Assembly (NCBI GenBank): GCA_905235325.1
Contig: CAJOLE010000012.1
Span: 5,768-69,767, forward strand
Direction of reading: 5' to 3'
DNA length: 64,000 nucleotides
Source of the DNA: an uncultured Prevotella sp.
GTDB lineage: Bacteria; Bacteroidota; Bacteroidia; Bacteroidales; Bacteroidaceae
The notes under the pieces are model-generated. The model saw only the letters and a program-made list of their open reading frames with translations, did no database searches and was not told the DNA's origin. The position numbers and the translations under genes were made by a program. Shown here in pieces: positions 2,742 to 47,620 of the stretch (its first letter is position 1; each line of letters opens with the position of its first letter).

Positions 2742-3126
2742 AAAAGGCGGCACTTTTGCTCAAAAGCCCGCCGCCATTTCCGAAAAACCCGCCGCCTTTT
2801 GCCGAAAACCCGCCGCCTTTTGAAAACTACACGCCGTGGCCGACTTCCGTTTTCGTTTTGGCTGTCGTTATCGTTACTGTTTTGCTTATCGTTTTGGTTT
2901 TCTTTCCGCCTGCTCCCAAGGTGTAGGTTCAGGTGTCGGTTCGGCGGTGCAGATTGGCCGGTCGGCCTCACCGTCGGCGTTTCCCTTCGTGCTCAATCGC
3001 TATATATATAGTTGTAATATGTACTTTTTATCCTACACTTCCTACACTTCCTACACCTAAAAAAAGTAGGGCAGGTGTAGGAAGTGTAGGAAGTGTAGGA
3101 TAACTCCTGCAAATGACAATCATATA
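2742..3126 (+). repeat. Composite intergenic module, copy 1
   Basis: 21-bp-period units at 2742/2763/2784/2805; aggtgtaggttc-aggtgtcggttc at 2919-2942; tatatagttg at 3005; perfect 31-bp inverted repeat 3028-3058/3073-3103. Confidence 0.9.
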
Positions 3127-3134
3127 CGCAGCGG

Positions 3135-5195
3135 TCAGAACTCCAGCACCAGCGACTGGCGCGGCTTCAGCTCCACGTCGCGGCTCAGGTCGTAGTAGCG
3201 GCCGGTGAGCACGTCGCGGGCGCGCGTGGCCTGCCCGATGACCTCGGCGTAGCGCTTCACCTGCATCACGGCAGGCTTCGTCGTCCCGTTCAGGACGGTC
3301 AGCACCGTCCCCGCCCGCTGGCCGCCGCTCAGCTCCGCCCGCTGGCTGTGCTGCGGCGTCGCAGCCCTCCTCGCGATAACATACACCCCCTGATAGGGAA
3401 TAAACTGCGTCTGCCGCCCCTGAGTGATGACGGTGTTGCCCTGCCGCCAGTGCAGCAGGCGGCTGAGCCACTGGAACATCGACTGCTCCTGCCGTGTGCG
3501 GCCCTCACGGGTGAAGGCGTTGTGCGTGTCGCCGGGGAAGCCGCCGGGGAAGTCCTTGCGCACGTTGCCGTCGGTCACCTCCTTCGTGCCGTTCATCAGG
3601 ATTTCCGTGCCGTAGTACAGCTGGGGTATGCGGTTCACCGTCAGCAGCAGGGCCAGGGCCTGCTTCAGCATCAGCGTGTCGCGGCCGTTCTTCAGGAAGC
3701 GGTCGGTGTCGTGGTTCTCGATGAAGGCCATGACCGACGACGGGTTCGGGTACAGATAGTCGTAGACAAACGAGTTGTAGAGCAGGTTCAGGCCGGCGAA
3801 CCAGCCGTCGGTCTCCTCGGTAGCCGCCCGGTTGATTCGGTCGTAGAACGAGAAGTCCATCACCGTCTTCAGGTAAGACTCTAAGCCCCCTAAGTTAGGG
3901 GGTTGGGGGTCTGAAGGAGCCTTGTTCAGACCCCTGTTGTCCCCTAACTTAGGTGACCATGCAACCCGGCTTTGCCAGGCGGCGGTATAGGCCGGCTCCG
4001 TCACCCAGGTCTCGCCCACGGTGTTGAAGTTGGGGTATTCGTCGTCTATCTCCTTCATCCAGTCGGCCATCGCGTCGGCGAAGGCGTAGGGATAGGTGTC
4101 CATGCGGATGCCGTCGATGCCGACGGTCTCTATCCACCACTTCGAGTTCTGGATGAGGTAGCGCATGAGGTGCGGGTTGTGCTGGTTCAGGTCGGGCATG
4201 GTGGGCACGAACCAGCCCTCGACGGTCTCCCTCCGGTCAACCTCGGAGGCGTAGGGGTCGAGGACGGGCGTCAGCTTGTAGCTGGTCAGGATGTAAGCCT
4301 CCCCAAGCCCCTCCGAAGGAGGGGGTGTTTGGTCACCTGAAGAGCTGTCATGTGCCTTAACATCCCCTCCTTCGGAGGGGCTTGGGGAGGTTTTAAGGTT
4401 CAGCCAGTCCTTGCTGGGCAAGTCGGCAATCCACGGATGCTCTAAGCCGCTGTGGTTGAAGATCATGTCCATCACCACCTTCAGCCCTTTCCCGTGGGCT
4501 TCGTCGCAGAGGCGGCGGTAGTCGTCGTTGGTGCCGAAGCGGGGGTCTACGCGGTAGTAGTTGGTGGTGGCGTAGCCGTGGTAGGTGGAGTAGCCACGGG
4601 GGTCGTCGGGCGAGTTGTTCTCGAGGACCGGCGTCAGCCAGAGGGCCGTCACGCCGAGGTCGCAGAAGTAGTCTAAGTGCTCGCGGATGCCGTTCAGGTC
4701 GCCGCCGTGGCGCAGCGAGGGCTGCGAGCGGTCCTCCCTGTAGGGGCACATGCCCTTCACCTGCGGGTTGTGGCCACGGCCCTGGGCGAAGCGGTCGGGC
4801 ATGAGCATATAGAGCACGTCGGCATTGGTGAAGCCCCTGCGCTCCCCGCCGCTCTTCTCGCGCTGCTTCAGCTGGTAATCCACGCTGAGCGTCGAGCGCT
4901 GAGCGCTGAACGTCAGTTTCATCGTGCCGGGCCGGGCGTCGCGCAGGTTCATGTAGACGAGCAGGTAGTTGGGCGAGTCGAGGCGCACGAGGCTGTCGAC
5001 GACGGCCCCGGGGTAGTCGGTGGTCACGCGCTGGACGTCGCGGATGCCCTGGCCGTAGACCATCAGCTGCACCGTCGGGTTCTTCATGCCGACGAACCAG
5101 TCGGTAGGTTCGATGCGGTCGATCTTGATTTTTGCTGCACTCATTGTTAGCATTGGTGCCACGAGGGCGGTTAACAGTAAAAGATTCTTTTTCAT
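3135..5195 (-). CDS. susA: GH13 neopullulanase/cyclomaltodextrinase (SusA-like) with signal peptide
   Basis: IDRIEPTDWFVGMKNP N-domain; LYMLMPDRF, YHGY, GIRMDTYPY, VGETW and FIENHDTDR motifs. Carries several in-frame repeat insertions. Confidence 0.9.
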   Translation of the reverse strand: MKKNLLLLTALVAPMLTMSAAKIKIDRIEPTDWFVGMKNPTVQLMVYGQGIRDVQRVTTDYPGAVVDSLVRLDSPNYLLVYMNLRDARPGTMKLTFSAQRSTLSVDYQLKQREKSGGERRGFTNADVLYMLMPDRFAQGRGHNPQVKGMCPYREDRSQPSLRHGGDLNGIREHLDYFCDLGVTALWLTPVLENNSPDDPRGYSTYHGYATTNYYRVDPRFGTNDDYRRLCDEAHGKGLKVVMDMIFNHSGLEHPWIADLPSKDWLNLKTSPSPSEGGDVKAHDSSSGDQTPPPSEGLGEAYILTSYKLTPVLDPYASEVDRRETVEGWFVPTMPDLNQHNPHLMRYLIQNSKWWIETVGIDGIRMDTYPYAFADAMADWMKEIDDEYPNFNTVGETWVTEPAYTAAWQSRVAWSPKLGDNRGLNKAPSDPQPPNLGGLESYLKTVMDFSFYDRINRAATEETDGWFAGLNLLYNSFVYDYLYPNPSSVMAFIENHDTDRFLKNGRDTLMLKQALALLLTVNRIPQLYYGTEILMNGTKEVTDGNVRKDFPGGFPGDTHNAFTREGRTRQEQSMFQWLSRLLHWRQGNTVITQGRQTQFIPYQGVYVIARRAATPQHSQRAELSGGQRAGTVLTVLNGTTKPAVMQVKRYAEVIGQATRARDVLTGRYYDLSRDVELKPRQSLVLEF
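3886..3953. repeat. REP-like family B inverted doublet, in frame in susA
   Basis: cctaagttagggg (3889-3901) is inverted with cccctaacttagg (3941-3953); inner stem ggggtctgaa/ttcagacccc; encodes SPKLGDNRGLNKAPSDPQPPNLGG. Confidence 0.75.
4295..4393. repeat. REP-like family A inverted doublet, in frame in susA
   Basis: agcctccccaagcccctccgaaggagggggtgtt and inverted aacatcccctccttcggaggggcttggggaggtt; encodes KTSPSPSEGGDVKAHDSSSGDQTPPPSEGLGEA. Confidence 0.9.
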
Positions 5196-5255
5196 GTTCG
5201 CGTTGGGTGTTAGTTCATTCTTGCGGTGCCGCGGCCCCTCTGGCCTCCCCTGCCC

Positions 5256-7178
5256 TCAGTCGTGCAGGATCAAGGCCGACTGCGGCTCCACGGTGGTGCG
5301 GCGGCCGAAGACCTTGCTGACCGACTGCTCGTTGATCTCCCCGTTCTCACAGACAATGGTGTACAGACCCTTGGGAATGTTGACCGTAGCCGTCTCGCGG
5401 TTCGCGTTGAGGATGACGATGATGTTGCGCCAGTCGTCGCGGCCGGCATAGTCCTTCAGGCGGAAGGCAACGACGCCCTTCGGGGCATCGAGAAACTCTA
5501 AGTGCTTGCGCACGAGGTGGGCATCGCCCAGACGGAAGGCGGGGTGATGGGCGCGCAGGGCTATCAGGTCCTGGTAGTACTTCAGCACCTGCGGGTAGCG
5601 CTGCTGGTTCTGCCAGTCGAGCTGGTTGATGCTGTCGGGCGACTCGAAGGAGTTGTGTACGCCCTTCTTCGTGCGCAGCAGCTCCTCGCCGCCGAGCATG
5701 AAGGGCACGCCCTGAGAGGTGAAGACCGCCGTCTGGGCCAGCAGGTCGAGGCGGATGAGCTCCTCCTCGGTGATGGCGGGAATGCTGGCACGCAGGCGGT
5801 CGGTGAGGCACATGTCGTCGTGGCAGGAGACGTAGGCCAGCATCTGCGTCGGCTCGGCGGCCCACGGCTGCTTCGCGTAGTTCACCTTCGCCATGTCCAC
5901 CTGCGGATGGCTGATGCCGCCGACGATGCCGAACTTCACGCTCTCCTCGCAGTCGGGAGCGCCGCCGAGCCAGCCAGCCTTCGTGTCGTCGTCGAACGGG
6001 CCGCGCAGGGCGTCGCGCAGTTCGTCGCTGAAGGCGGCGATACGGGGCATCTGCGGGATGTTCGCCTTCACGCCGAGCTGCTCGGTGGGCAGGGCGCACT
6101 GGCCGGCACTCCAGCCCTCGCCGTAGATGAAGATGGAGGGATTGAGCTTGTCGAGCTCCTGTCGGATGAGGTTCATCGTCTCGATGTCGTGACAGCCCAT
6201 GAGGTCGAAGCGGAAGCCGTCGATGCGGAACTCGTTGTACCAGTACTTCACTGACTCAACCATGAACCGCCGCATCATCGGCTTCTCTGACGCCGTCTCG
6301 TTGCCGCAGCCGGAACCGTTGCTGTATTTGCCGTTTGCGGATTGGCGATAGTAGTAATCGGGATAGGTGCGCTGGAAGTTGGAGTGCCCGATGTCGTATG
6401 TGTGGTTATAGACCACGTCGAGGATGACGGCAATGCCGGCAGTGTGGAGGGCCTGCACCATCTGCTTGAACTCGCGGAGACGGCAGACGGGGTCGTAGGG
6501 GTCGGTGGAGTAGCTGCCCTCCGGCACGTTGTAGTTCACGGGGTCGTAGCCCCAGTTGTACTGAGCCTCGTCGAGCCGCGTCTCGTCAACAGAGCCGTAG
6601 TCGTAGCTGGGCAGGATATGCACGGCGTTGACACCCAACTGCTTCAGGTGGTCGATGGCCCACGGCTCGGTCAGCGCAAGAAACTTGCCGGGGTACTTGG
6701 CATCGGGGCGGGCCACGGAGAAGTCGCGGTGGTGAAGCTCGTAGACCACGAGGTCGGCAGCCGACTTGATGACGGGGTGCTGGTCGCAGCACCAGTCGTC
6801 GGGCCACGTGTTCATCGTGTTTACGATGGCACCGCGCTGTCCGTTCACGCCGACGGCCTTGGCAAAGACGCCCGGCGTCTCGCCGTGGCCGGTGTCGAAG
6901 GTGTAGAAGCGGCCCATGAGGTCGCCCTTGACGGCGGCCGACCATACCGCTCCCTCCTGCCCTAAGGTGGAGACTTTCATCGCGACGGTCTTCAGCGGCT
7001 TGCCGCCCTGGCCGTCCTTGTAGATACGCACCTTCACAGCCTTGGCCTTGGCCGGGGCAAAGAGTCTGAACGTCGTAACCTCAGGGGTGTACTCCATCTC
7101 GTTGAAGTTGAAATCCTGCGATTGGGCGGGCTTGACCGCCAGCACTGTCAGTAGTCCTGCTAATATCAATTTCTTCAT
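5256..7178 (-). CDS. pulA: Type I pullulanase (GH13)
   Basis: YNWGYDP signature, DVVYNH, GFRFDLMG, YGEGW, YVSCHDD; signal peptide. Confidence 0.93.
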   Translation of the reverse strand: MKKLILAGLLTVLAVKPAQSQDFNFNEMEYTPEVTTFRLFAPAKAKAVKVRIYKDGQGGKPLKTVAMKVSTLGQEGAVWSAAVKGDLMGRFYTFDTGHGETPGVFAKAVGVNGQRGAIVNTMNTWPDDWCCDQHPVIKSAADLVVYELHHRDFSVARPDAKYPGKFLALTEPWAIDHLKQLGVNAVHILPSYDYGSVDETRLDEAQYNWGYDPVNYNVPEGSYSTDPYDPVCRLREFKQMVQALHTAGIAVILDVVYNHTYDIGHSNFQRTYPDYYYRQSANGKYSNGSGCGNETASEKPMMRRFMVESVKYWYNEFRIDGFRFDLMGCHDIETMNLIRQELDKLNPSIFIYGEGWSAGQCALPTEQLGVKANIPQMPRIAAFSDELRDALRGPFDDDTKAGWLGGAPDCEESVKFGIVGGISHPQVDMAKVNYAKQPWAAEPTQMLAYVSCHDDMCLTDRLRASIPAITEEELIRLDLLAQTAVFTSQGVPFMLGGEELLRTKKGVHNSFESPDSINQLDWQNQQRYPQVLKYYQDLIALRAHHPAFRLGDAHLVRKHLEFLDAPKGVVAFRLKDYAGRDDWRNIIVILNANRETATVNIPKGLYTIVCENGEINEQSVSKVFGRRTTVEPQSALILHD

Positions 7179-7199
7179 AGTTTAGGTATTATTACGGCG

Positions 7200-7207
7200 C
7201 AAAGATA
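7200..7207 (-). promoter_or_regulatory. Bacteroidota -7 promoter element for pulA
   Basis: TATCTTTG on the - strand, ~22 nt upstream of the ATG. Confidence 0.6.
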
Positions 7208-7210
7208 CGC

Positions 7211-7260
7211 AAAAAAAAGAAGAACCCCAAAAGTTCTGAAGAAAACTTTCGGGGCTCTTC
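7211..7260 (-). terminator. Probable intrinsic terminator after the GH97 gene
   Basis: Stem ccccaaaagtt/aactttcgggg followed on the - strand by a T8 run. Confidence 0.6.
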
Positions 7261-7283
7261 CTAATTATTCCGGGTTCTCGTTC

Positions 7284-9543
<2,260 letters not shown>

Positions 9544-9579
9544 TCACTTAACGCTTCATGGCGATGCCGTCTGCCGGAT

Positions 9580-14507: not shown

Positions 14508-14521
14508 TGCAAACGTTTGCA
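14508..14521. promoter_or_regulatory. LacI-type operator O1
   Basis: Perfect palindrome TGCAAACGTTTGCA with central CG, upstream of the LacI gene and its -7 element (14444-14451). Confidence 0.75.
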
Positions 14522-14650
14522 TTACAACAGCCGCAGGTGAGCACCCGCGTACCGATATCGGCTGCAAAGATAAGCAATCATTTCGAATTATCAAAGAAAA
14601 AATTATCAAAACAGAACATTCTTTACGTTGTACCAAACTAACAGGCAGGC

Positions 14651-14959
14651 AAAACCCGCCGCCTTTTGAGCAAAACCCGCCGCCTTTTGCCAAAAACGCG
14701 GCACTTTCTGAAAAACCCACCCTTTGGAATAATTCCCGTCTGCCAGCTTCCAAGGTGTAGGGTCAGGTGTCGGTTCCAGCCCCGACACAGGTCAGAAACC
14801 CCGTTTACCGGCCTGCCTCCATCCGTCATGTTCCTATATATATAGTTGTCATTCCCACTTTTTATCCTACACTTCCTACACTTCCTACACCTAATTTTTT
14901 CGGGCAGGTGTAGGAAGTGTAGGAAGTGTAGGATAATTCCAATTATCAGCAACTATATG
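14651..14959 (+). repeat. Composite intergenic module, copy 2
   Basis: 21-bp units at 14651/14672/14693; aggtgtagggtc-aggtgtcggttc at 14753-14776; tatatagttg at 14839; perfect 31-bp IR 14862-14892/14906-14936; caactatat at 14950. Confidence 0.9.
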
Positions 14960-14972: not shown

Positions 14973-14986
14973 TGCAAACGATTGCA
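14973..14986. promoter_or_regulatory. LacI-type operator O2
   Basis: TGCAAACGATTGCA (1 mismatch to O1), upstream of the amylase -7 element TAATTTTG at 15042-15049. Confidence 0.7.
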
Positions 14987-15091
14987 TAGCGCACATCATA
15001 TTATTAGCAGCACACAGGGGAGAAACGTAAATCTTTTTCCGTAATTTTGCACCAGAGATTGCAATAATCAAAAAAACTTAAACGGTAGCGT

Positions 15092-17156
15092 ATGAGAAGG
15101 ATTTACTCCACAATGGTTTGCTGCCTCGTGGCCGTGGCTGCGATGGCACAGGGATGGCCCGGCGACTATGGCGGCGTCATGCTGCAGGGCTTCTTCTGGG
15201 ACAGTTTCAACGACTCGCAGTGGGCGCGGCTGGAGAAGCAGGCCGACGACCTGGCCGGCACATTCGACCTGGTCTGGGTGCCGCAGAGCGGCAACTGCGG
15301 CGGCACGTCGATGGGCTACGACGACCTCTGGTGGTTCAACGACTACAACAGCTCGTTTGGCAGCGAGGCGCAGCTGCGCTCGATGATCAGGACGTTCCGC
15401 GAGAAGGGCATCGGCACCATTGCCGACGTGGTGATCAACCACCGCCGCAACATCAGCAACTGGGTGGACTTCCCCCGTGAGACCTATCAGGGCGAGACCT
15501 ACGAGATGACTTCCACCGACATCTGCTCCGACGACGACGACGGCGCTACCAAGCGGTGGGCCGACAGCAACGGCTACAGCCTGAGCAGCAGCAAGGACAC
15601 CGGCGAGGGATGGGGCGGTATGCGCGACCTCGACCACACGAGCCCGAACGTGCAGCGCATCGTCAAGGCTTACCTGAAGTTCCTGCTTGGCGATCTCGGC
15701 TACACGGGATTCCGCTACGACATGGTGAAGGGCTACAGGGGCGAATACACCAAGATGTACAACGAGGACAGCCGGCCGCTGTTCTCCGTCGGCGAGTGCT
15801 GGGACGGCACTGCCACCATCCGCAACTGGATCGACGCCACGGGCAAGACCAGCGCCGCCTTCGACTTCCAGTTCCGCTACACCGTGCGCAATGCCATCAA
15901 CCGCGGCGACTGGAGCTATCTGGCCAGGCAGAACGACGGCAACTGGCCGCTCGTCAGCCGGAACTACGAGCAGGCGGCCTACGCGCAGTATGCCGTGACC
16001 TTCGTCGAGAACCACGACACGGAGAAGCGCGCCAATGCCGACCAGGACCCCATCAGGCGCGACACGCTCGCCGCCAATGCCTACCTGCTGGCCATGCCGG
16101 GCACGCCCTGCGTCTTCCTCACCCACTGGAAGGCTTACAGGCCGGAAATCAGGGCGATGATTGCCGTGCGCAAGATGGCCGGCATCACCAACACCAGCAG
16201 CTACGTCAACTTGCACAGCACCAAGGACTGCTACGCCAACACCATTCAGACGGGCGGCACGGACCGCCTGCTCGTGATTGTCGGCCCCGACACCGACGGC
16301 TACTCGCCCTACGCCGCCAGGTGGCAGGAGGTGCTCTCGGGCTATAAGTACAAGTATTTCCTGCCACGGTCGATGGAGACCGCCTTCGCCGACAAGGCTT
16401 CGGGTGAATACGACAGCCCGTTCAAGGTAAAACTGACGGCCGTCTCTGCCGACGACAATGCCCGGCTGGTTTATACGCTCGACGGCTCGCAGCCGACGGC
16501 GACCAGCACACAGGCGGCCAACGGCGCCACCATCGACATCACGGAAGCCTGTACCCTCAAGGTGGGCCTCCTCCTGACAGACGGCTCGGTGAAGGGCGTG
16601 CTTACCCGCAGCTACACGTTCAGCCAGTCTGAGAAGCAGGCCATTACCATCTACGTCAATACCGACAAGGTGGGCTGGAACGCCGTGAACTTCTGGAGCT
16701 GGGGCGGCGACGGCAGCCACGCCCCCGCGAACAACAGCTGGCCGGGCGACAAGGTGACAGAGACCCGTCGACGGCAAGGCGTGGTACGCCAAGACGTTTA
16801 CCATCAACAGTGCCGACGATGCCGTCAGCCTGGTGTTCAGCACCGGCTCAGGCAGTCCGCAGACGGTCGACGTCACGAACGTCTCCACGACCTCGTTCTT
16901 CGAGATTTTGCCCGACAAGGACGGCAGCAAGAACAAGGTCAACTCTGTGACGGAAACGATAACGGGAATGGGAGCGATAACGGGAACGACAACGGGAACG
17001 GGAACGGTCTATACCCTCGACGGACGGAGGCTGCGGACAGTGGACGGAGACGGCAAATTCTCTGGTCGTTTGGGGGATTGGTCGTTTAGTGGTTTAGGCT
17101 TCATTCTAGGCAAGGGCGTCTATATCGTCAACGGGAGGAAAATCGTATTGAAGTAA
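15092..17156 (+). CDS. Secreted GH13 alpha-amylase with Fn3-associated and starch-binding-like modules and a T9SS-type tail; frameshift near 16765
   Basis: VMLQGFFWDS, ADVVINH, GFRYDMVKG, VGECW, FVENHDT; YTLDGSQPT module; a second frame continues VDGKAWYAKTF...VYTLDGRR...KGVYIVNGRKIVLK. Confidence 0.88.
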
Positions 17157-17252
17157 CCATTCTTCTCTGGTCGTTTGGGGGATTGGTCGTTTAGTGGTTT
17201 AGGCTTTTTTGGATTCTTCTCTGGTCGTTTGGGGGATTGGTCGTTTAGTGGT

Positions 17253-18044
17253 TTAGGTTTTCAGGACGGAGCGCACGGCAAACCAGCAGTGCAGCAGCAG
17301 GGTCTGAACGACGCCATAGTGGCGCTGCATCACGAGGTATCGCTCACGCAGCGATGCCTTGTGGTTTTTGGTGGTCGCTCCCTCTTCCAGATAGTTGGCC
17401 ACGACTATACCTATATTATATAAGGGCAGCGACATACGCTCGGCCTCGCGCATCACGCGGATACACCAGTCGACGTCGGCCGAGAAGCGGTAACGAGTGT
17501 CGAACTGCAGGTTCTTGGCAATATCGGTGCGGGCATAGAAGGCCTGATGGCAGACCAGCATACCCTGACGGAACGAGCGCCACGTCAGCCGCTCGGGCGG
17601 CTGCAGGCGGCGCGGGCGCAGGAAGCGGCCCTCGCCGTCGACGATATCGGTATTGCCGTAGAGCACGCCGGGCAGCTCGGCAGTGGGCAGCTCACCCAGC
17701 CGGCACCGGCGCACCACCTGCTCCAGCGTGTCGTCGTGCGCAAAGGTGTCGCCCGCGTTCATGTAGACGATGTAGTCGCCCGAAGCCTGCGTCAGCCCCT
17801 TGTTCATGGCGTCGTAGATGCCCCGGTCAGGCTCCGACTGAATGATGACGTGATGCTGGTTGCCCTCCGAGCTGTCCGACTGCCGCTTGTATGCCTCGGC
17901 CATAGCCAGCGTGCCGTCGGTCGAAGCACCGTCGATAATCAGGTGCTCCACCTCGGCGTATGTCTGGCGGTGTACGCTGTCGAGCGTCCGCTGCAGCACG
18001 GCCTCGGCGTTGTAGGTAATGGTGACGACGCTGAAACGTATCAT
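17253..18044 (-). CDS. GT2 glycosyltransferase
   Basis: FSVVTITYNA, IIDGASTDGT, EPDRGIYDAMNKG, MNAGD. Confidence 0.92.
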   Translation of the reverse strand: MIRFSVVTITYNAEAVLQRTLDSVHRQTYAEVEHLIIDGASTDGTLAMAEAYKRQSDSSEGNQHHVIIQSEPDRGIYDAMNKGLTQASGDYIVYMNAGDTFAHDDTLEQVVRRCRLGELPTAELPGVLYGNTDIVDGEGRFLRPRRLQPPERLTWRSFRQGMLVCHQAFYARTDIAKNLQFDTRYRFSADVDWCIRVMREAERMSLPLYNIGIVVANYLEEGATTKNHKASLRERYLVMQRHYGVVQTLLLHCWFAVRSVLKT

Positions 18045-37684: not shown

Positions 37685-37691
37685 GTGAAGT

Positions 37692-39140
37692 TCAGAAGCA
37701 CTCGCGGACAACCTCGTGGTCGTCGAAGTGGTGCTTCACGCCCTTGATTTCCTGATAGTCCTCGTGACCCTTGCCGGCAATGAGGATGACGTCGCCACGC
37801 TCGGCCATCATGCAGGCCGTGCGGATGGCCTCGCGGCGGTCGGCAATGCTCACCACCTTCTTCATCTGCTTCGCGTCGAGTCCGGCGAGCATATCGTTGA
37901 TGATGTCCTGCGGCTCCTCGAAGCGGGGGTTGTCGCTGGTAATGATGACGCGGTCGCTCTGGCGCACGGCCTCCTGGGCCATGAGCGGACGCTTGCCCTT
38001 GTCGCGGTTGCCGCCGGCACCGCAGACGGTGATGACCCGACCCTGGCCGTCGAGCACCTCATGGATGGCCTTCAGCACGTTCTCAAGGGCATCTGGCGTG
38101 TGGGCGTAGTCGACCACGGCCGTGAAGCCCTGGGGCGAGCGGATGGGGTCGAGTCGGCCGTTGACGCTCTTCAGCGTGCTCATCGTGACGAGGATATCCT
38201 CGGGCTGCTTGCCCAGCATCACGGCGGCACCGTAGACGCAGAGCAGGTTCGAGACGTTGAAGCGTCCGATGAACTGTACGCCCACCTCGCGGCCGTCGAT
38301 CTCGAGGTACATACCCTCGAAGTGGCACTCAATGATGCGGGCACGGAAGTCGGCCATCTGGCGGATGCTGTAGGTCTTCACCTGCGCCTTCGTGTTCTGC
38401 ACCATGAACAGGCCGTTCTTGTCGTCGGCATTGGTAATGGCAAACGCGCCCTTCGGCAGTTGGTCGAAGAACATTTTCTTGGCGTCGCGGTAGTTCTCGA
38501 CAGTCTTGTGGTAGTCCAGATGGTCGCGGGTCAGGTTGGTAAAGAGTCCGCCGGCGAATTTCAGTCCGCCGATACGCTTTTGGGCGATGGCGTGGCTTGA
38601 GCACTCCATGAACACGTACTCGCAGCCCTGCTGGGCCATACGCCCCAACAGCTCGTTCAGCTCGATGGCATCGGGCGTGGTATGGGTGGCGGCGACGGCC
38701 TCGCCGTCGATGTAGTTGCACACCGTCGAGAGCAGTCCGCACTTGTGTCCCATCTGGCGGAACATATTATATAATAAGGTGGCGATGGTCGTCTTGCCGT
38801 TGGTGCCCGTCACGCCTACCAGCTTGAGCCGTGACGTCGGGTCGCCGTGGAAGACCGTGGCCACCGGCCCTACGGCGTCCTCCGTCGACTCCACCTGTAT
38901 GTAGGTGACGCCGTCGGCCGTCGTCTCGGGCATGTCTTCGCACAAAATGGCCGATGCTCCCAGTTCGACTGCTCGCGCAATAAACTGGTGACCATCGACC
39001 TGTGTTCCTTTCATGGCTACGAACAGATAGCCAGGCTTAACCTGCCGTGAGTCAATCTTTACTCCGGCGATGTTTGTGTCGGCGTTGCCAACGATGGCCA
39101 GCGGCCTGACATTCTTCAGAATTTCTCTCAAATTCATCAT
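37692..39140 (-). CDS. murE: UDP-MurNAc-tripeptide synthetase (meso-DAP type)
   Basis: [29 protein letters not shown]. Confidence 0.97.
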
Positions 39141-39156
39141 TGTAAGTATCTATTTA

Positions 39157-41307
39157 TTATATTTCCAGACGTAGTTCACACACAGCCCCCGGGGTCACGG
39201 TCTTACCAGCCGCTATGCTTTGCGACTTCACCTTGCCACGGCCGACGAGAGCCACCTTCATGCCACGGCTCTCCAGCTCGTAGACGGCATCGCGGGCACC
39301 CATTCCCGTCACGTCGGGAACAATCCCCTTGTTCACCTTCGCCGTCTTCGGGGCTTCACCCTTCAGTCCCAGACGATTCAGCACGTATGAGGCCGCACCC
39401 TCGTCGCCGCCCTTCACGCCGGGCGTGAAGTTCGACGTGGAGTCGCGGGCGTCGTCAATCAGCCGCTTCACGTTCTGCGCCATCACGCCCTCGGCGATGT
39501 GGCGGAACACCACGCCGCTCATGCCGCCGCCGGAGGCGGGCAGTCCGCGCTTGCGCAGACAGACGATGCACGAATAGCGCGGCTCGTCGGCGGGGAAGAA
39601 GCCAGCGAAGCTGAGCCAGTAGCGCGTCACGCCCGAGTGGTAGCCGCCGTGCTCGTCGGCTATCTGGGCGGTGCCCGTCTTGCCTGCCACCTTGAACGAG
39701 CGCGACAGCGGGGCAGCCTTGCGTCCCAGGCCCTGGCTGACGACGTGCTCCAGGATGGTCTGCATCATGGTGATGGTCTCCGGCTTGGCGATGCGCTCCT
39801 TCAGCACCACGGGCGGGTATTCCCTGATGGTCTCGCCGTCCTTCACCAGTCGCTTGACGAACCTGGGCTGCATCATCCGCCCGTCGTTGGCGATGGCGTT
39901 GTAGAAGGCCAGCGTGTTGATGGGTGCTATCTGCGTCTCATAGCCTATCGACATCCAGGGCAGCGTCGTCTTGCTCCAGTACTTAGAGCGGTCGGTAGTC
40001 TTGGTGTCGGGCATACGTATGACGGGCGGACGGTAGCCCTCGATGGGCAGTTTCAGGTCTTCATGAATGCCCACGCGGTAGAGTCCCTCGACGTACTTCT
40101 CGGGATGGCCGCCGTAGAACCGGTCGATGACGTGGCTCGTGCCGACGTTCGAGCTGACTTCCAGCGTGCGTGCCACGTTGATGTCCTGATAGCCGCCGCG
40201 GCGCCAGTTGTGGTCCTTCATCAAGCGTCCGTGCATCTCGACCACGCCGCTGCCCGTATGTATGATGTAACTCGTGTCGTTGGGAATCACGCCGTCGTCG
40301 AGTGCGACGAGCAGCGAGGCCACCTTGAACACCGAGCCCGGCTCGCAGCGGTAGCTGATGGCCGAATTGATAGCCTCGGCATACTGTCCGTCGGGCATTC
40401 GCATCATGTTGACGATGGCCTTCACGTCGCCCGTCTCCACCTCCATGACGATGGCCACGCCGAGGTCGGCATTCACCTCGGGCAGCTTCATCTCGTCGAT
40501 GAGTGCGCGCTCGGCCAGGTCCTGCATGTTCACGTCGATGGTGGTCACGATGTCGGCTCCGTCGACGGGGGGCTGCTCGGTGATATTCATAAACCTGTTG
40601 AGCACCTTCTGGCGGTGTACCAGTCCGTTCTTGCCGCGCAGCGTCGAGTCGAACGACAGCTCCAGGCCGCAGCGGGCGGAGTCGATTTCACCGTACATGA
40701 TGCCTATCGTGCGCTTGGCTAAGGTATTGAAGGGGTGGTTGCGGGCGTTGAACTCGTCCCAGTGGAATCCGCCCTTACCTACCGAGAGGTTAAAGATGGG
40801 CAACTTCTTGAGCAGGGCGAACGTGTTGTAGTCGATGCGTTGTTTCCATACCGGCCAGTGGCGGGCCCCGACGGTGCCGTCGCGGTTCACCTTGTTACGC
40901 CCCTCTTGCAGGCTGGCCTTGAACTCGCTGACCGACTGCTGGGGGAAGATGTCGTTCAGGCCCACGCAGAGGCTGTCGATCTTCTCGTCCCAAAGCTGGT
41001 TGACCCTGTTGATGGAGGCAGTGTCCCAGGGGACGTTCTTCTGACGGCCGGGCTGGAAGTCCACGAACACCTTGTACTCAGGAATGGAGCTGGCCATGAG
41101 CTGTCCGTCGCAGCTCAGTATGTTTCCCCGGTTGGGCTTCACGGGAATGGAGTCGAGCTTCAGCTGCTGCTGGACAGCCATCCAGTAGTCTTTCTCGACC
41201 GTCATAATGTAGAGGGCCTTGCCGATGATGGCAACTCCGATAACCGTCAACGCCAGCACAATGGCGAAGTATCGCGGCATGACCTTATTACTGTTGAATT
41301 TACTCAT
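39157..41307 (-). CDS. ftsI: Class B penicillin-binding protein with PASTA domain
   Basis: EPGSVFK, SSN, KTGT motifs; C-terminal VPDVTGM. Confidence 0.93.
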   Translation of the reverse strand: MSKFNSNKVMPRYFAIVLALTVIGVAIIGKALYIMTVEKDYWMAVQQQLKLDSIPVKPNRGNILSCDGQLMASSIPEYKVFVDFQPGRQKNVPWDTASINRVNQLWDEKIDSLCVGLNDIFPQQSVSEFKASLQEGRNKVNRDGTVGARHWPVWKQRIDYNTFALLKKLPIFNLSVGKGGFHWDEFNARNHPFNTLAKRTIGIMYGEIDSARCGLELSFDSTLRGKNGLVHRQKVLNRFMNITEQPPVDGADIVTTIDVNMQDLAERALIDEMKLPEVNADLGVAIVMEVETGDVKAIVNMMRMPDGQYAEAINSAISYRCEPGSVFKVASLLVALDDGVIPNDTSYIIHTGSGVVEMHGRLMKDHNWRRGGYQDINVARTLEVSSNVGTSHVIDRFYGGHPEKYVEGLYRVGIHEDLKLPIEGYRPPVIRMPDTKTTDRSKYWSKTTLPWMSIGYETQIAPINTLAFYNAIANDGRMMQPRFVKRLVKDGETIREYPPVVLKERIAKPETITMMQTILEHVVSQGLGRKAAPLSRSFKVAGKTGTAQIADEHGGYHSGVTRYWLSFAGFFPADEPRYSCIVCLRKRGLPASGGGMSGVVFRHIAEGVMAQNVKRLIDDARDSTSNFTPGVKGGDEGAASYVLNRLGLKGEAPKTAKVNKGIVPDVTGMGARDAVYELESRGMKVALVGRGKVKSQSIAAGKTVTPGAVCELRLEI

Positions 41308-41764
41308 CTCCGTTTCCGCTTAAGAATCCTCGTTCGGGTATATTTATTATATAAGGTGGCTGCGGACTGGCGTGCAGCAGCGAGTCGTGGTTCTCCCTGA
41401 GCACCCGCAGCACCTGGCTCTCTCGGCAGCGCTCGGTCAGCGTGCTCGAGCTCGACAGGGCTTTATACTTGGCATCCTTCAGCTCGCGCTCCATCTTGTC
41501 GATCTTGATGATGTCCTGCTGGCACTGATAGCGGAAGGCCACGTAGACCACCGTGAAGAACGCGATGAGCACCAGCGACCAGATGTTGCGACGCACCAGG
41601 CCGGCCGACAGGATGTCGCCTCCAAGAATCTTGCGTAGCGTCAGCGTTCCCACCGGCACGGTGTCGCTTTCGCTCACGCTCTTCTTGAATTCCTTCAGCT
41701 TCTCCAGTGCGTTTTGCTTTTTCGCCTTCAGCTCTTCCTGGATGTCAGTTTGCTCTTCTGCCAT
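41300..41764 (-). CDS. ftsL: FtsL-like cell division protein
   Basis: TM segment plus coiled coil between rsmH and ftsI. Confidence 0.75.
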   Translation of the reverse strand: MAEEQTDIQEELKAKKQNALEKLKEFKKSVSESDTVPVGTLTLRKILGGDILSAGLVRRNIWSLVLIAFFTVVYVAFRYQCQQDIIKIDKMERELKDAKYKALSSSSTLTERCRESQVLRVLRENHDSLLHASPQPPYIINIPERGFLSGNGDE

Positions 41765-41768
41765 GAAT

Positions 41769-42683
41769 CTATATTCGTTCTGCAATTCTCAACTTGGCGC
41801 TGCGGCTGCGGGGGTTGCGCTGCTGCTCGTCGGCGGACGGTACGATGACCTTGTTGTTCACCGCGCGGAACGGCGACGCCATCCGTCCGAAGAAGTCCTG
41901 CTCGACCCGCCCTTCGGCATTGCCGGCCTTCATGTAGTTCTTCACGATGCGGTCCTCGAGAGAGTGGTAGGTGATGACCGACAGACGGCCGCCCTTCCTC
42001 AGCACCTCGGTGGCTCCGGCCAGCATCTCCTTCAGAGCCTCCAGCTCGTGGTTCACCTCTATCCGGAGTGCCTGGAACAGCTGTGCCGTCTCCTTCTTCT
42101 CGCGCTCCGGCCTGAGCAGCCCCCCCACCGTCTTGAGCAGCTCGCCGGTGGTGGCTATGCGCTGCTGCGCCCGCGCCTTGACGATAAGCGCCGCCAGTCG
42201 CCGTGCCTGCTTCAGCTCTCCGTAGAGATAGAAGACGTCGGCCAGCTGCTGTTCGTCGTAGCTGTTGACGACGTCGGCGGCCGTCGTTCCGGCACGCTTG
42301 TTCATCCGCATGTCGAGGGGCGCATCAAAACGGAAGGAGAAGCCGCGCGTCACGTCATCGAAATGGTGACTCGAAACGCCCAGGTCGGCTGACAGGCCGT
42401 CGATCTCGCTGACACCGTAGTAGCGCATCCACTGCTTGAGATACCTGAAGTTGCTCCTGACGAAGGTGAACCGCTCGTCGTCGACGATGTTCTGCTCGGC
42501 GTCGGCATCCTGGTCGAAGCCGTAGAGATGTCCGTTCGGGCCCAGTCGCCGCAGGATCTCCCGGCTGTGGCCTCCGCCGCCGAAGGTGACGTCTACATAG
42601 ATGCCCTCAGGTTGGATAGCCAACCCGTCAATGCTTTCTGTCCGAAGCACTGGTACATGATATGTCTCCGCCGTGACAGTCAT
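41769..42683 (-). CDS. rsmH: 16S rRNA m4C1402 methyltransferase
   Basis: HVPV, TFGGGGHS, DLGVSS, FQALRIEVN, HSLEDR, NPRSRSAKLR. Confidence 0.97.
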   Translation of the reverse strand: MTVTAETYHVPVLRTESIDGLAIQPEGIYVDVTFGGGGHSREILRRLGPNGHLYGFDQDADAEQNIVDDERFTFVRSNFRYLKQWMRYYGVSEIDGLSADLGVSSHHFDDVTRGFSFRFDAPLDMRMNKRAGTTAADVVNSYDEQQLADVFYLYGELKQARRLAALIVKARAQQRIATTGELLKTVGGLLRPEREKKETAQLFQALRIEVNHELEALKEMLAGATEVLRKGGRLSVITYHSLEDRIVKNYMKAGNAEGRVEQDFFGRMASPFRAVNNKVIVPSADEQQRNPRSRSAKLRIAERI

Positions 42684-42687
42684 CCGT

Positions 42688-43155
42688 TCAGTATATCTCT
42701 GCAGGAGATGTCTCCTGCCCCATAATGCTTTCAAGCGCCTTGCCAAATTCTTCACTACTCATCTTCGTTGCCTCTGCCTTATCATTGGCCCAAATCTCGA
42801 TGGTGTCGTCCATGCCTATGAACTTCACGTCCTGCTGGATGCCGGCCATCTGGAGATAACGCTTGGGAATCAGGAACCGGCCGTTGCCGTCGAGCGTCAC
42901 CAGTTCTACTTCAGAGACAAACTGGCGGAAGATTTGCTGATGCTGGGCGTTATACCTGTTCAGCTTCCGCCGGAGCGTGTCCTGCTGCTCGTTCCATACG
43001 CTCTCGGGATAGAGCACAAGGCAGGGCTGGAAGATGTCTTTCCGCAGTATCAGCGTTTCGCTGCCCGATGCCTGTAGCACCTTGCGGAAAACGGCTGGCA
43101 GAAAGGCTCTTCCCTTTACATCCGTCTTGGCTTCTATGTTACCTAAAAAGCGCAT
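42688..43155 (-). CDS. mraZ: Transcriptional regulator MraZ
   Basis: DVKGRAFLP and LDGNGRFLIP SpoVT/AbrB repeats; first gene of dcw. Confidence 0.95.
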   Translation of the reverse strand: MRFLGNIEAKTDVKGRAFLPAVFRKVLQASGSETLILRKDIFQPCLVLYPESVWNEQQDTLRRKLNRYNAQHQQIFRQFVSEVELVTLDGNGRFLIPKRYLQMAGIQQDVKFIGMDDTIEIWANDKAEATKMSSEEFGKALESIMGQETSPAEIY

Positions 43156-43182
43156 AAGTATTTAATGTGAAGAATTCAGCCA

Positions 43183-43225
43183 CAAAGTTACACATTTTCC
43201 CCCACATTCCACCACTTCACTCCAC
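43183..43225 (-). promoter_or_regulatory. dcw promoter (-7 element) with three MraZ-box-like GTGG repeats
   Basis: TAACTTTG at 43183-43190 on -; ccac at 43202, 43212 and 43222 (10-bp period). Confidence 0.7.
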
Positions 43226-43383
43226 TTTTTTCAAAATTTAACATCTTTTTATTGATTTAGAGCGGTTTTGTCTCAAAGAGCACGACAATCTCAACCGAAT
43301 CTTGCACTTTTTCGGAAAAAATGTGTCATTTTTCAAAGAAATATGTTACTTTTGCAGCACGATTGACAGCAATTACGAAAAAA

Positions 43384-44241
43384 ATGGTTACAGTAAACGA
43401 GAAAACAGTCGACATTGATAACATTCTGAAGTCAAAGATGGGGAGCAAGGCCCGCTTCTTGCCCCGCCCGCTCGTCACGTGGCTCAAGCGCACCGTCCAT
43501 CAAGACCAGGTGAACGCCTATCTGTGGGAGAGCCGCCACCTCGTGGGCACCGAGTGGCTGGAAGAATGTGTCAGATACCTGGATGCCACGCTCGACATCG
43601 TCGGCGCGGAAAACCTGCCCGACAAGAACGACGGGCGGCACTACACCTTCGTCTCGAACCACCCCCTGGGCGGTGAGGACGGCGTGGCCCTCGGCGCCAT
43701 CATCGGCCGCCACTACGACGGGCGCTTCCGCTACCTCGTCAACGACCTGCTGATGAACCTGCCCGGACTGGCGCCGCTCTGCATACCCATCAACAAGACG
43801 GGCAAGCAGGGTCGCGACTTCCCGAAGATGGTGGAGGCCGGCTTCCAGAGCGACAACCACATACTGATGTTCCCCGCCGGCCTGTGCTCACGCCGGAAGA
43901 ACGGCATGATACGCGACATCGACTGGAAGAAGACGTTCGTTGCCAAGAGCGTAGAATACAAGCGCGACGTCGTGCCCATCCACTTCAGCGGCCGGAACTC
44001 CAACTTCTTCTACCGGCTGGCAAACTTCTCGGACAGGTTCCTGCCTTTCAACCTTGCCATGCTGTTCTTAGTCGACGAAATGTACAAGAACGTACACAAG
44101 ACCTTCCGCGTCACCATAGGCAAGCCCATACCCTGGCAGACCTTCGACCACAGCCGCAAGCCCGCCGAGTGGGCGCAATGGGTCAAGGAGCGCGTCTACG
44201 AACTCGGCGAAGGCCAGGCGTCCGGAAAAGAACAAGAATAA
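43384..44241 (+). CDS. glsA: PlsC-type acyltransferase (GlsA-like, glycine lipid O-acylation)
   Basis: NHPLGGED (HX4D), MFPAG; paired with a GNAT gene, divergent from mraZ. Confidence 0.75.
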   Translation: MVTVNEKTVDIDNILKSKMGSKARFLPRPLVTWLKRTVHQDQVNAYLWESRHLVGTEWLEECVRYLDATLDIVGAENLPDKNDGRHYTFVSNHPLGGEDGVALGAIIGRHYDGRFRYLVNDLLMNLPGLAPLCIPINKTGKQGRDFPKMVEAGFQSDNHILMFPAGLCSRRKNGMIRDIDWKKTFVAKSVEYKRDVVPIHFSGRNSNFFYRLANFSDRFLPFNLAMLFLVDEMYKNVHKTFRVTIGKPIPWQTFDHSRKPAEWAQWVKERVYELGEGQASGKEQE

Positions 44242-44278
44242 CAACCCCGGAACATCTCTTGCAAAAACAGGAAACCCC

Positions 44279-45268
44279 ATGGAACAACCCATCATCGCCC
44301 CCATCCCCACGGATGTGCTCCGCAGCGAGCTGACCCCCGACCGCCAGCTCCGCATGACCAACAAGAGCAACAACGAAATCTACGTCATCACCGCCCATAA
44401 CGCACCTAACGTGATGCGCGAGATAGGCCGACTGCGCGAAATCGCCTTTCGCGAGGCCGGAGGCGGGACGGGCAAGGACTGCGACATCGACGAGTTCGAC
44501 ACCTGCGAGAACTGCTACAAGCAGCTCATCGTCTGGAACCCCGAGCAGCAGGAGATTATCGGCGGCTACCGCTACCTCATCGGCACCGACTGGGAGCTCG
44601 ACGCCAACGGGCAGCCCATCCTGGCCACCAGCCATATGTTCCACTTCAGCGAGAAATTCCTCAACGACTATATGCCCTACACCATCGAGCTGGGGCGCTC
44701 GTTCGTCAGCCTGCCCTACCAGAGCTCGCGCATGGGAGCCAAGAGCCTCTTCGCGCTCGACAATCTCTGGGACGGCCTGGGCGCGCTCACCGTCATCAAG
44801 CCCAACGTGAAATACTTCTTCGGCAAGATGACCATGTACCCCTCCTACATACGCAAGGGGCGCGACATGATCCTCTACTTCCTCAAGAAGCATTTCGACG
44901 ACAAGGAGAGGCTGATCCTGCCGATGAAACCGCTGAAAATCGAGGCTGACCCCGCCGAGCTCGAACAGCTCTTCTCAGGCAAGGACTTCAACGAGGACTA
45001 CCGCATCCTGAACCGCGAAATCCGAAGGTCAGGCTACAACATTCCGCCGCTGGTAAACGCCTACATGACCCTCTCGCCAACGATGAAGCTCTTCGGCACC
45101 GCCATCAACTACGGCTTTGGCGACGTCGAGGAGACGGGCATCCTCATCGCCGTGGAGGAAATCTTCGAGCAGAAGCGCGTGCGCCACATCGACTCCTACA
45201 TCCGCCAGCACCCCGAAGCGCTAAAGATTACCAGCGGAGCCAACAAGGTTATCTACAAGGACCGATAG
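44279..45268 (+). CDS. glsB: GNAT N-acyltransferase (GlsB/OlsB-like)
   Basis: EIGRLREIAFREAGGGTG, IIGGYR, IELGRSFV, IPPLVNAY. Confidence 0.78.
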   Translation: MEQPIIAPIPTDVLRSELTPDRQLRMTNKSNNEIYVITAHNAPNVMREIGRLREIAFREAGGGTGKDCDIDEFDTCENCYKQLIVWNPEQQEIIGGYRYLIGTDWELDANGQPILATSHMFHFSEKFLNDYMPYTIELGRSFVSLPYQSSRMGAKSLFALDNLWDGLGALTVIKPNVKYFFGKMTMYPSYIRKGRDMILYFLKKHFDDKERLILPMKPLKIEADPAELEQLFSGKDFNEDYRILNREIRRSGYNIPPLVNAYMTLSPTMKLFGTAINYGFGDVEETGILIAVEEIFEQKRVRHIDSYIRQHPEALKITSGANKVIYKDR

Positions 45269-45361
45269 CCCTGCGCCGACGTCCGCGCAGGCACGGCACA
45301 GGCCGGCAGCCCGAAGGCCACGGCCGAAAATCCATCGAAAGCAAACATAAGTAACAGCAAG

Positions 45362-45418
45362 ACACTGCCCCTGCCCCTCCCCTCCTTTCCTTGCAAAGAA
45401 GGGGAGGGGCAGGAGTGT
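45362..45418. terminator. Long hairpin between convergent genes (terminator or REP-like)
   Basis: cctgcccctcccctcttt-like arm pairs with aaagaaggggaggggcagg; no U-tract. Confidence 0.5.
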
Positions 45419-45420
45419 AG

Positions 45421-47112
45421 TCAGTACTTGAAGGATGAGCCGCCGAGGAACTCGCGGAGCAGCGAGGTGGGCGGAATCTGAGTCTCGGGAATGGGCCTGA
45501 TGTAGCGCAGGAACTTCAGCAGGCGGTAGGCCTCGGCGTATTCAGGTACGTTCTCGGGCACCTGCTCCAGCAGCGGCTCGGCCTGGCGCTTGATGACGGC
45601 CAGCTCGAAGAGCATGGCGGTGTTGAACATGGCGTCGGCATTCTCCTGGTAGGGGAAGATCCAGCGGTTCTCGCCGGCCCTTACCGACGGCCAGCGGCGG
45701 ATGGTCTCGACGGCCGATACGCCGCGGTACTTGAAGTCGCGGACGATGCGGCGCAGCAGGCGGTTGTCGGTCGTGGGTATGTAGTTGTGGTGGTCGAGCA
45801 GCAGGGTGGTCAGCGCCGAGGCGTAGATGCGGAACACCTGCTCCTGCGGCACCTGGGCCATCAGCTCGGGGTTCAGGGCGTGGATGCCCTCCACGATGAG
45901 CACCTCGTCGTCGTGCAGGCGCAGTCGGCGGCCGCTCATCTCGCTCTTGCCTGTCTGGAAGTTGTAGCGCGGCAGCTCCACCTCCTCGCCCCTGAAGAGC
46001 GCGTTCATCTGCTCGTTGAGCAGCGGCAGGTTCAGGGCGTGCAGGTGCTCGAAGTCGTAGTCGCCCTTCTCGTCGCGCGGCGTCTTGTCGCGGTCGAGGA
46101 AGTAGTCGTCGAGCGATATGGGGACGGGCTTGATGCCATTGACGGCCAGCTGGACGCTGAGGCGCTTGCACGTCGTCGTCTTGCCGCTCGACGACGGTCC
46201 GGCAATGAGCACCACCTTGGTGGCGAGGCGGGGGCTGATGCCCGACGACCCACGGCGGCGGCCCGCAATCTCGTCGGCAATCTGCGCAATCTTCTTCTCC
46301 TGCAGGGCTTCGCTGATCTGGATGAGCTGCGAGGTGTAGCCCTTGTCGACGACCTCGTTCAGGTCGCCGATGGTGCGCAGCCCGAGTATGTCCTGCCAGC
46401 GGTGGTGCTCCTTGAAGATGCCGAACATCTTGTCCTGGTGGGTCATCTCGCCCAGCTCGTCGGGGTGGTCGGCCGAGGGCAGGCGCAGCAGCAGGCCGTC
46501 GAAGTACTTCTCGAGTCCGAAGAGGTAGAGCTGGCTGGTGTTCGTCAGCAGCGCGCCGTAGTAATAGTCCTTGTAGCCGTCGATTTCGTAGTAGGTGGTA
46601 TAGAGGCGCCCGATGCTCTTGAGGAGTTTCACCTTCGAGATGGCCTGATGCTCGCCGAAGATGCGGATGGCCTCGTCGGTGGTGGTCTCATGGCGGTGTA
46701 TGGGCAGAGCGGCGTCGATGATTTCCTGCATCCGGCGGCGGATGCGCCCGGCATCGTCGAGCGTCACGGGGTGGTCGAGGCTCAGGTCGACGTAGTAGCC
46801 GTTCGACACGGGTATGTCGATCGACACCTTCGCCCCGTCGTAGAGGTCGTGGACGGCCTTGCAGAGCACGAAGAACAGCGAGCGGGTGTAGGCGCGCAGC
46901 CCGCTGGTCGACGTCAGGTCGAGGAAGTCAACCTCGCGCGGGTTATACACACGGCAGTGCATACCTTCGACCTTGTTGTTGACATGTGCCAGCACGGGCG
47001 TGCGCTTCATCTCGAGGCCCGTCAGGGTGTAGATTTCCTCCAGTGTGGCGCCCATCGGCACGCTTACAGTCTGCCCATTGTTGCGGCAGTAGATTCTTAC
47101 TTGTTCGTCCAT
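45421..47112 (-). CDS. Nucleoside (uridine) kinase with a ThrRS-like N-terminal region
   Basis: TGS/ThrRS-like N-terminus; AGPSSSGKTT, SLDDYF, VEGIHALNP, SLLREFLGGS. Confidence 0.88.
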   Translation of the reverse strand: MDEQVRIYCRNNGQTVSVPMGATLEEIYTLTGLEMKRTPVLAHVNNKVEGMHCRVYNPREVDFLDLTSTSGLRAYTRSLFFVLCKAVHDLYDGAKVSIDIPVSNGYYVDLSLDHPVTLDDAGRIRRRMQEIIDAALPIHRHETTTDEAIRIFGEHQAISKVKLLKSIGRLYTTYYEIDGYKDYYYGALLTNTSQLYLFGLEKYFDGLLLRLPSADHPDELGEMTHQDKMFGIFKEHHRWQDILGLRTIGDLNEVVDKGYTSQLIQISEALQEKKIAQIADEIAGRRRGSSGISPRLATKVVLIAGPSSSGKTTTCKRLSVQLAVNGIKPVPISLDDYFLDRDKTPRDEKGDYDFEHLHALNLPLLNEQMNALFRGEEVELPRYNFQTGKSEMSGRRLRLHDDEVLIVEGIHALNPELMAQVPQEQVFRIYASALTTLLLDHHNYIPTTDNRLLRRIVRDFKYRGVSAVETIRRWPSVRAGENRWIFPYQENADAMFNTAMLFELAVIKRQAEPLLEQVPENVPEYAEAYRLLKFLRYIRPIPETQIPPTSLLREFLGGSSFKY

Positions 47113-47290
47113 TGTATTGACAGTTTTTGGTTTTCTTCTTATTGGATGGTGCAAATTTAGGCAATTTTTCTGAGATTAACGTCTTTCGGGGCAAAAACTT
47201 TTGCTTTTCATTCCCACCCCTCGGTTTCAATCACCTTGATGCGCCGGTCTGTCAGTTACTGACCCCACCTGTTTTGCCGGCACAACTTAC

Positions 47291-47620
47291 AAAACCCGCC
47301 GCCTTTTCGGCAAAACCCGCCGCCTTTTCCCAAAAACCCGCCGCCTTTTCCATTCAGCCCATCAACCTCCAACCTCCAACCTTCAACCTTAAACCTTCAA
47401 CCTCCAACCTCCAACCCCAGGTGTCGGTTCAGGTGTCGGTTCCCCCTCCGAAGGCAGTCTTCGAGGGCTGTTTTTCCCGATGGAACCGCACTTTTTTGCA
47501 TATATAGTTGTCATTCGCAGGTTTTATCCTACACTTCCTACACTTCCTACACCTAAAAAAAGTCGGGCAGGTGTAGGGAGTGTCGGAAGTGTAGGATGTT
47601 TACTGCCATTCATAATCAGT
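47291..47620 (+). repeat. Composite intergenic module, copy 3
   Basis: 21-bp units at 47291/47312/47333; caacctc x8 at 47363-47418; aggtgtcggttc x2 at 47419-47442; tatatagttg at 47501; IR 47524-47554/47569-47597 with 2 internal mismatches. Confidence 0.9.

Follow-up and report, generated by a model that had tools for sequence, protein, structure and literature searches.

An intergenic origin-like repeat module tied to a single-copy VapE helicase gene in an uncultured Prevotella

Results

Architecture of the module

The window analysed here is a 64 000-nucleotide stretch of DNA from an uncultured Prevotella (positions 5768-69767 of contig C12 in G000, a 2.93-Mb draft genome that is 83% complete). 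It carries three copies of a gene-less, origin-like module that belongs to a family of about 86 loci, and one copy of the same module, on contig C144, forms the 5' end of a single-copy gene for a VapE helicase. The module family is real, is undescribed as far as we have searched, and is strongly tied to this helicase.

Sequence inspection finds in all three window copies the ordered layout claimed in a preliminary description of the DNA: an array of 21-bp units, a doublet of a 12-bp repeat and a palindrome whose two arms, each a triplet of 9-bp units, face each other across a short loop (Table 1). The palindrome opens with an outer motif, TATATAGTTG, that starts at 3005, 14839 and 47501. The distance from the doublet to this motif is 86, 86 and 82 nt and the spacer between them 62, 62 and 58 nt, both as described; the step from the motif to the palindrome arm is likewise constant, and measures 25 nt from start to start, the 23 nt given earlier reflecting another anchor. 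The core shared by doublet and arms occurs eight times in copies 1 and 3, as stated, and nine times in copy 2, where an extra core lies within the spacer. Flanking genes are indeed convergent for copy 1 and divergent for copies 2 and 3. The absence of a terminal inverted repeat was only partly right: the outer motif makes up one end of the palindrome, with a mirror image on the right side in the DNA fold, which is predicted to be a long hairpin (-29 to -38 kcal/mol for the window copies folded as DNA). The three window copies have spacers unrelated to one another, whereas genome-wide the spacers fall into subfamilies.

Table 1. Positions of the module copies and their parts in the window
Feature	Position	Strand	Remarks
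Copy 1, whole module	2742..3126	+	between chromate-transporter-like gene and alpha-amylase-family gene, convergent
Copy 1, 21-bp array	2742..2821	+	unit 1 reversed, unit 2 degenerate
Copy 1, 12-bp doublet	2919..2942	+	core identical to palindrome core
Copy 1, palindrome	3005..3126	.	outer motif 3005-3029; triple 9-bp arm 3030-3057; 16-nt loop
Copy 1, palindrome, right half	arm 3074-3101	.	mirrored outer motif up to about 3126
Copy 2, whole module	14651..14959	+	between LacI-family regulator and alpha-amylase, divergent
Copy 2, 21-bp array	14651..14707	+	
Copy 2, 12-bp doublet	14753..14776	+	
Copy 2, palindrome	14839..14959	.	arms 14864-14891 and 14907-14934; 15-nt loop
Copy 3, whole module	47291..47620	+	alpha spacer subfamily; between back-to-back promoters of uridine-kinase-like gene and Na/Pi symporter
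Copy 3, 21-bp array	47291..47349	+	
Copy 3, variable spacer	47350..47418	+	microsatellite-like
Copy 3, 12-bp doublet	47419..47442	+	
Copy 3, palindrome	47501..47620	.	arms 47526-47553 and 47570-47597; 16-nt loop

A short repeat with a AGTTACTGAC core, at 47240-47275, has 19 matches in the genome and often adjoins a module. LacI-type operator-like palindromes flank copy 2 on both sides (14510-14522 and 14975-14987), the left one being kept upstream of susC in relatives. Further variable or repeated intergenic stretches lie at 3874-3973, 4290-4400 and 17057-17260; strain contigs show joints there, and relatives match these stretches in multiple copies.

Family size and distribution

The preliminary description counted three copies, far fewer than the genome holds. 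A profile built from them matches 91 places in G000. Counted by arm, G000 has 155, which make 69 facing pairs and 17 singles and thus about 86 loci; the reversed genome has none, and the module is not a product of chance. A short loop separates 67 of the pairs, while in a minority form arrays lie between two arms. All but one of the 67 fall outside called genes (crude gene calling), with all four flanking-gene orientations represented. Among 82 arrays of 21-bp units, 70 are near an arm, and 9 of the remaining 12 fall at the end of a contig. The repeats have the practical effect of breaking assemblies, 17 contigs carrying an arm close to one end.

All three window copies lie on the + strand, which had raised the idea of replichore-polarised sites, of the kind that KOPS and Chi represent. 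Two neighbours on one contig share a strand in 9 cases and are opposed in 8, and agreement with GC skew in the draft assembly is 30 vs 27 (16 vs 16 where the skew is strong). The shared strand in the window is chance; because module strand is random, the polarity idea fails and we discount it practically altogether. A search for a phage origin gave only two chance matches, inside a phage open reading frame (ORF), and no relative of the short VapE among the viral contigs.

Constraint on motifs, spacing and ends

The loop is 15-16 nt long in 60 of the 67 palindromes and 5-6 nt in four. Doublet and arm lie 83-87 nt apart in 55 of 58 copies, although the median spacer identity is 0.43. Arm substitutions occur at unit positions 2, 5 and 6, with only 6 of 90 in the 15 core positions, and the array keeps its period of 21 in 133 of 142 intervals. 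The distance between array and palindrome is periodic at 10.5 bp, half-unit steps included (R 0.82, n = 55); the 13 distinct distances give R 0.83 for the same period (p 1e-4). The spacing is therefore helically phased. Such constraint looks like that expected of a protein site on duplex DNA, and the substitution pattern, fixed distances and phasing support the earlier proposal of a protein-bound site under selection for its motifs and spacing.

If the modules were structured RNAs or terminators, a stable hairpin and the stop codons that are often close by would be natural. The hairpin pairing is, however, not conserved: five positions are changed alike in both arms, but 80 of the 90 substitutions have no counterpart in the other arm and disrupt pairing on both strands. 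An Rfam scan gave no match at the gathering threshold within the window, the flanks show every orientation and the phasing points to duplex DNA, all of which make an RNA or terminator function highly improbable.

The palindrome end of the module is sharp and the array end ragged. No target duplication is apparent (flank match 4.07 vs 4.12 when shuffled, 55 copies), although the empty sites found in relatives are too diverged to confirm this. About 25 copies belong to one spacer subfamily, with nearest-neighbour identities mostly of 85-96%; the module therefore does amplify. The view that there had been no recent spread like that of a MITE (a transposable element of the miniature inverted-repeat type) thus holds for target duplications but fails on this shared subfamily.

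The module at the start of a vapE gene

The suggestion that a VapE-like helicase gene might adjoin a copy proved correct. G000 has seven VapE-domain matches, and three long VapE proteins carry a BT4734-like primase-polymerase domain. The short vapE gene of C144 (C144:6206-7570, 454 aa) has its palindrome directly before the start codon and its 12-bp and 21-bp repeats in frame. The protein contains PF05272 with an intact Walker A motif and ends in a predicted winged helix. Its top match both by sequence (E 3e-5) and by fold (E 1e-13) is Rep of the Staphylococcus aureus pathogenicity island SaPI1 (7PDS), in support of the resemblance to primase-helicase origins remarked on at the outset. Folded from its single sequence, the C-terminal piece gave a poor model (pLDDT 59), which was set aside with no weight given.

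The arrangement recurs in orthologues. In each of the 11 orthologue loci for which upstream DNA is available, a facing triple 9-bp palindrome precedes the start, with differing cores, and in most of the short proteins the same loop holds a 7-residue repeat. The best 120 relatives of C144 VapE are 57-87% identical to it, and a family-wide protein search finds the short type at E 1e-100 in 1 of 400 other genomes. At the short-vapE loci the palindrome is preceded by a small Cys-rich ORF and usually by an M15 peptidase. The Cys-rich ORF (L022:7678-7851, - strand) is conserved, is 55-76 aa long and ends at the outer motif of the palindrome; it has no Pfam or NCBIfam family above cut-off, and its product is a candidate partner for the 21-bp array.

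Co-variation of gene and orphan repeats

In four relatives (G064, G348, G104 and G408) the orphan copies match the core letters of the resident gene. Doublets of the TGACCC type number 34 in G104 and 5 in G408 and are absent from G000, G064, G348, G126 and G315; CCNRC triples number 136 in G000, 26 in G064, 23 in G348 and 0 in G086. The in-frame 21-bp array has its best match in the orphan array of its own genome in 6 of 6 genomes (one orphan locus each), in G348 only narrowly ahead of G064. The wing has a G-K motif in all 6 orthologues of the TGACCC type and in 0 of the 5 of the CCNRC type. G315 has 21 CCNRC palindromes and a 3' remnant of vapE with a non-K wing.

At L050:1290-2140 (G315:C176) the final stretch of a short vapE adjoins a 21-bp array, and a palindrome and a second array lie about 300 bp farther on, an arrangement that resembles a cassette with an internal deletion.

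Cores and orphans particular to them also go with other vapE genes of G000; a de novo scan gave about seven orphans of the C82 type and one of the C29 type. The long C82 gene (G000:C82:3800-6350, L024) encodes a primase-like domain, a helicase and DUF3874, is followed by an HU-like gene and is flanked by inverted repeats of about 95 bp with GTGACAC units; its gene-less copies are on C10, C17, C24, C28, C40, C78 and C87. Near another vapE, a 399-aa ORF (L027:4345-5544, G000:C85:9345-10544) appears by eye to be reverse transcriptase-like, and a further ORF upstream of it four-helix-bundle-like.

Sites in relatives and mobility

The orthologous site of copy 3 is empty in G385 and G348, that of the module at C1:34735 in four relatives and that at C1:22776 in G289; these relatives are too distant to give exact module ends. 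The flanks of copy 1 enclose a 21-23 kb gene block in G126 and G289 that is missing here in G000. At the position of copy 2, 23 of 24 relatives have the start of susC beside the LacI-family regulator, and the contig of the 24th ends before that point. Both sites would fit modules that act in recombination or cassette exchange and so mark and cause rearrangements. In a hand count at about 80% identity, which left out copy 2 and one junction without matches, relatives have the flanks side by side at 7 of the 43 module junctions vs 6 of 43 module-free inter-operon junctions. This gives no signal of breakpoint enrichment, and we think such a role very unlikely.

The copy 1 site, beside the amylase stop codon, is occupied in G126 (L221:1780-2090, G126:C50) by a 9-bp palindrome with that genome's own 21-bp array, and in G289 (L189, G289:C21:22615-22850) by a TGACAGA-type palindrome; with modules of other VapE types in both, it is possibly a hotspot.

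G000 has one RAYT-like Y1 transposase (G000:C106:917-1510, L011), with its own GTAG-type repetitive extragenic palindrome (REP) family of 49 matches. If the modules were REPINs or MITEs moved by a RAYT or by an insertion sequence (IS) transposase, the copy at the vapE start would merely have landed there. Their potential to form a long hairpin, their intergenic position, the GTAG in their arms, the presence of this RAYT in an incomplete assembly and Y1_Tnp matches over cut-off in 6 of 8 relatives all agree with that. But the RAYT is flanked by a different REP, which comes within 500 bp of only 2 of the 67 modules, and a link between the two was not found in the assembly as it stands. Moreover, the palindrome is at the vapE start in every one of the 11 orthologues while its cores change, pairing is broken by most arm substitutions and target duplications are absent. 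G064 has 26 arms and no Y1_Tnp over cut-off, whereas G086 has several Y1_Tnp and no expansion. A cognate transposase was not found in a genome-wide search limited to the Y1 family. We consider this origin distinctly unlikely.

The chief rival explanation accepts VapE-bound sites and supposes that they are kept for the host, as auxiliary origins, as repair or nucleoid anchors or for titration of VapE, with rare spread by recombination and rewriting by gene conversion. Four further samples have contigs over copies 1 and 2, with a palindrome depth of about 50-fold. No spacer pair is identical (maximum 0.96), parts are shuffled between subfamilies, and G126 and G289 carry modules of other VapE types at the site of copy 1. 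In G315 at least five unit variants coexist, with both arms of any one palindrome nearly uniform for a single variant, suggestive of copying inside the palindrome. These observations favour host-kept sites. The distribution does not: the core doublet is matched in 9 of 400 genomes of the genus, with many copies in only two, copy number in genomes with an orthologue runs from about 1 to 86, relatives have empty sites and orientation is random. Host maintenance is therefore unlikely, though the best placed of the alternatives.

Discussion

A helicase-linked repeat

The orphan modules have the same layout as the start of vapE, and are therefore likely binding sites of that helicase; judged on sequence, the module palindrome is likely where the short VapE of C144 binds and loads. 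Of the options first put forward for the module, a non-autonomous element mobilised in trans fits best. Our preferred explanation, held with a modest balance of confidence, is that a gene-less repeat whose palindrome is a VapE binding or loading site has been spread by the helicase in trans followed by re-insertion through repair. That spread is driven by the helicase, taken by itself, is plausible but a little short of probable.

By analogy with SaPI Reps, the short VapE would bind the palindrome arms via its winged helix, which may recognise the 9-bp units (consensus YCCKRCAC), and open the loop, perhaps as two hexamers placed face to face on either side of the A/T loop, in the manner of SaPI origins. 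Acting in trans, it would open and locally copy an orphan site, and the copied product would be re-inserted by repair, perhaps by microhomology joining; a part for the BT4734-like domains of the three long VapE proteins in this step is speculative. The phased 21-bp array may be used by a second factor or a DNA bend, with only correctly spaced copies being copied, and the palindrome over the vapE start could also be an operator. Local copying with repair-type re-insertion would explain the fixed palindrome end, the ragged far end, the lack of duplication and a spacing that is selected in every copy.

A number of observations weigh against helicase-driven spread. The short C144 VapE is without the BT4734-like primase domain, and no integrase or transposase was found among the 48 of 67 neighbour ORFs scanned near short vapE (11 loci, flanks of 1.5-6 kb). 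At the vapE locus the strain contigs have no excision joint and depth is not raised; none of the joints listed, all from assembled contigs, corresponds to an excised doublet. (Sample X9 has depth over the module and no coverage across the vapE body, a gap that carries no weight; the RNA runs X20 and X21 yielded 0 reads, which likewise says nothing about expression.) In SaPIs the origin is directly downstream of rep, whereas the VapE site is upstream of its gene and overlaps it. REPINs too have stepped spacings (PMC3337134), so that phasing by itself is no mark of a helicase. Most TGACCC orthologues fall in a single clade, the tree showing one nested exception, G348, and the wing-core correlation therefore reflects few independent events. 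No intact short vapE was found in G315 despite its 21 orphans. Conversely, the gene is present in G086 and G024, with one doublet match each, in G126, with no orphans by the triple pattern, and in G008, with a non-K wing, no palindromes and no orphans of either kind; by the patterns used, then, the gene does not force expansion. Finally, no derivation from vapE coding sequence can be recognised in the orphan spacers (lowest nearest-neighbour identity 0.51).

The widest form of the proposal is one that we put forward tentatively and regard as rather doubtful: transposase-free selfish DNA, in which miniature origins are copied chromosome-wide by a single-copy self-loading helicase with a readable wing-core code, and which arose independently in several VapE clades across rumen Prevotella.

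Novelty and significance

No description of this repeat family was found in the literature searched, in which subscription journals were thinly covered. The main text of a preprint on non-coding clusters has no mention of Prevotella, iteron or VapE, and its supplements may bear on novelty. What appears new is how large the expansion is, that the repeats are embedded in frame in the gene, that two repeat types match across genomes, that wing and core correlate and that the spacing is phased. Bacteroidales carry many vapE genes of unknown role, and the module family supplies one with a predicted DNA target, whose natural specificity variants make binding of VapE to the repeat directly testable. 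If the helicase does drive the spread, this would be a transposase-independent route to dispersed repeats and a counterpart of REPIN-RAYT whose parts come from a satellite replication module. With latent origin-like sites by the dozen, the host's means of holding the helicase in check would become a question too.

Comparison with known systems

AgaPP, a BT4734-like primase-polymerase, performs microhomology joining (PMC11724360, of which part was available), and the same kind of domain in the three long VapE proteins of G000 offers a possible insertion route. The cognate short VapE lacks this domain, and the available part of that paper has no linked repeat family.

BrickBuilt, a MITE of Porphyromonas gingivalis (PMC4596501, likewise in part), resembles the module in being intergenic and species-restricted, in occurring in Bacteroidales and in containing a minisatellite, of 23 nt in BrickBuilt and 21 nt in the module. 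The module differs from it in its ragged end, in the lack of an element-wide terminal repeat or target duplication and in repeats that match a helicase gene. As against MITEs in general, it has no terminal inverted repeats around the whole, arms standing at both ends only in the minority form, and no target-site duplication.

The closest likeness in build is to the origins of SaPIs and other phage-inducible chromosomal islands (PICIs). SaPI Reps use a winged helix to bind iterons that face each other about an A/T core, and they need no loader for loading (PMC9371898). C144 VapE is, by prediction and homology, a Rep-like SF3-type ATPase with a C-terminal winged helix; in that same account, as in the module, at least two iterons stand opposed on each side of an A/T core, and the core differs between Rep types. 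The SaPI primase is upstream or fused, whereas no primase domain or gene is present at the short vapE. Nor was an integrase or att site that would bound an island seen there, and the short-VapE module was not found in viral contigs. The Prevotella module has, in addition, phased 12-bp and 21-bp arrays and dozens of gene-less chromosomal copies.

In its logic the family is closer to REPIN-RAYT systems (PMC3337134, part available). There too, many intergenic palindromic copies accompany one single-copy enzyme gene with the same repeat, the letters are lineage-specific, and diverse spacers have preferred lengths; like a REPIN, the module is an inverted doublet that is abundant outside genes and can form a hairpin. 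It differs in that its linked enzyme is a helicase and that of REPINs an HUH transposase, in that its units are direct triplets and not small palindromes, with hairpin pairing not conserved, and in that its repeat does not flank the one RAYT found. The family is best read as a non-autonomous repeat tied to a self-loading helicase, REPIN-like in logic and SaPI-origin-like in build.

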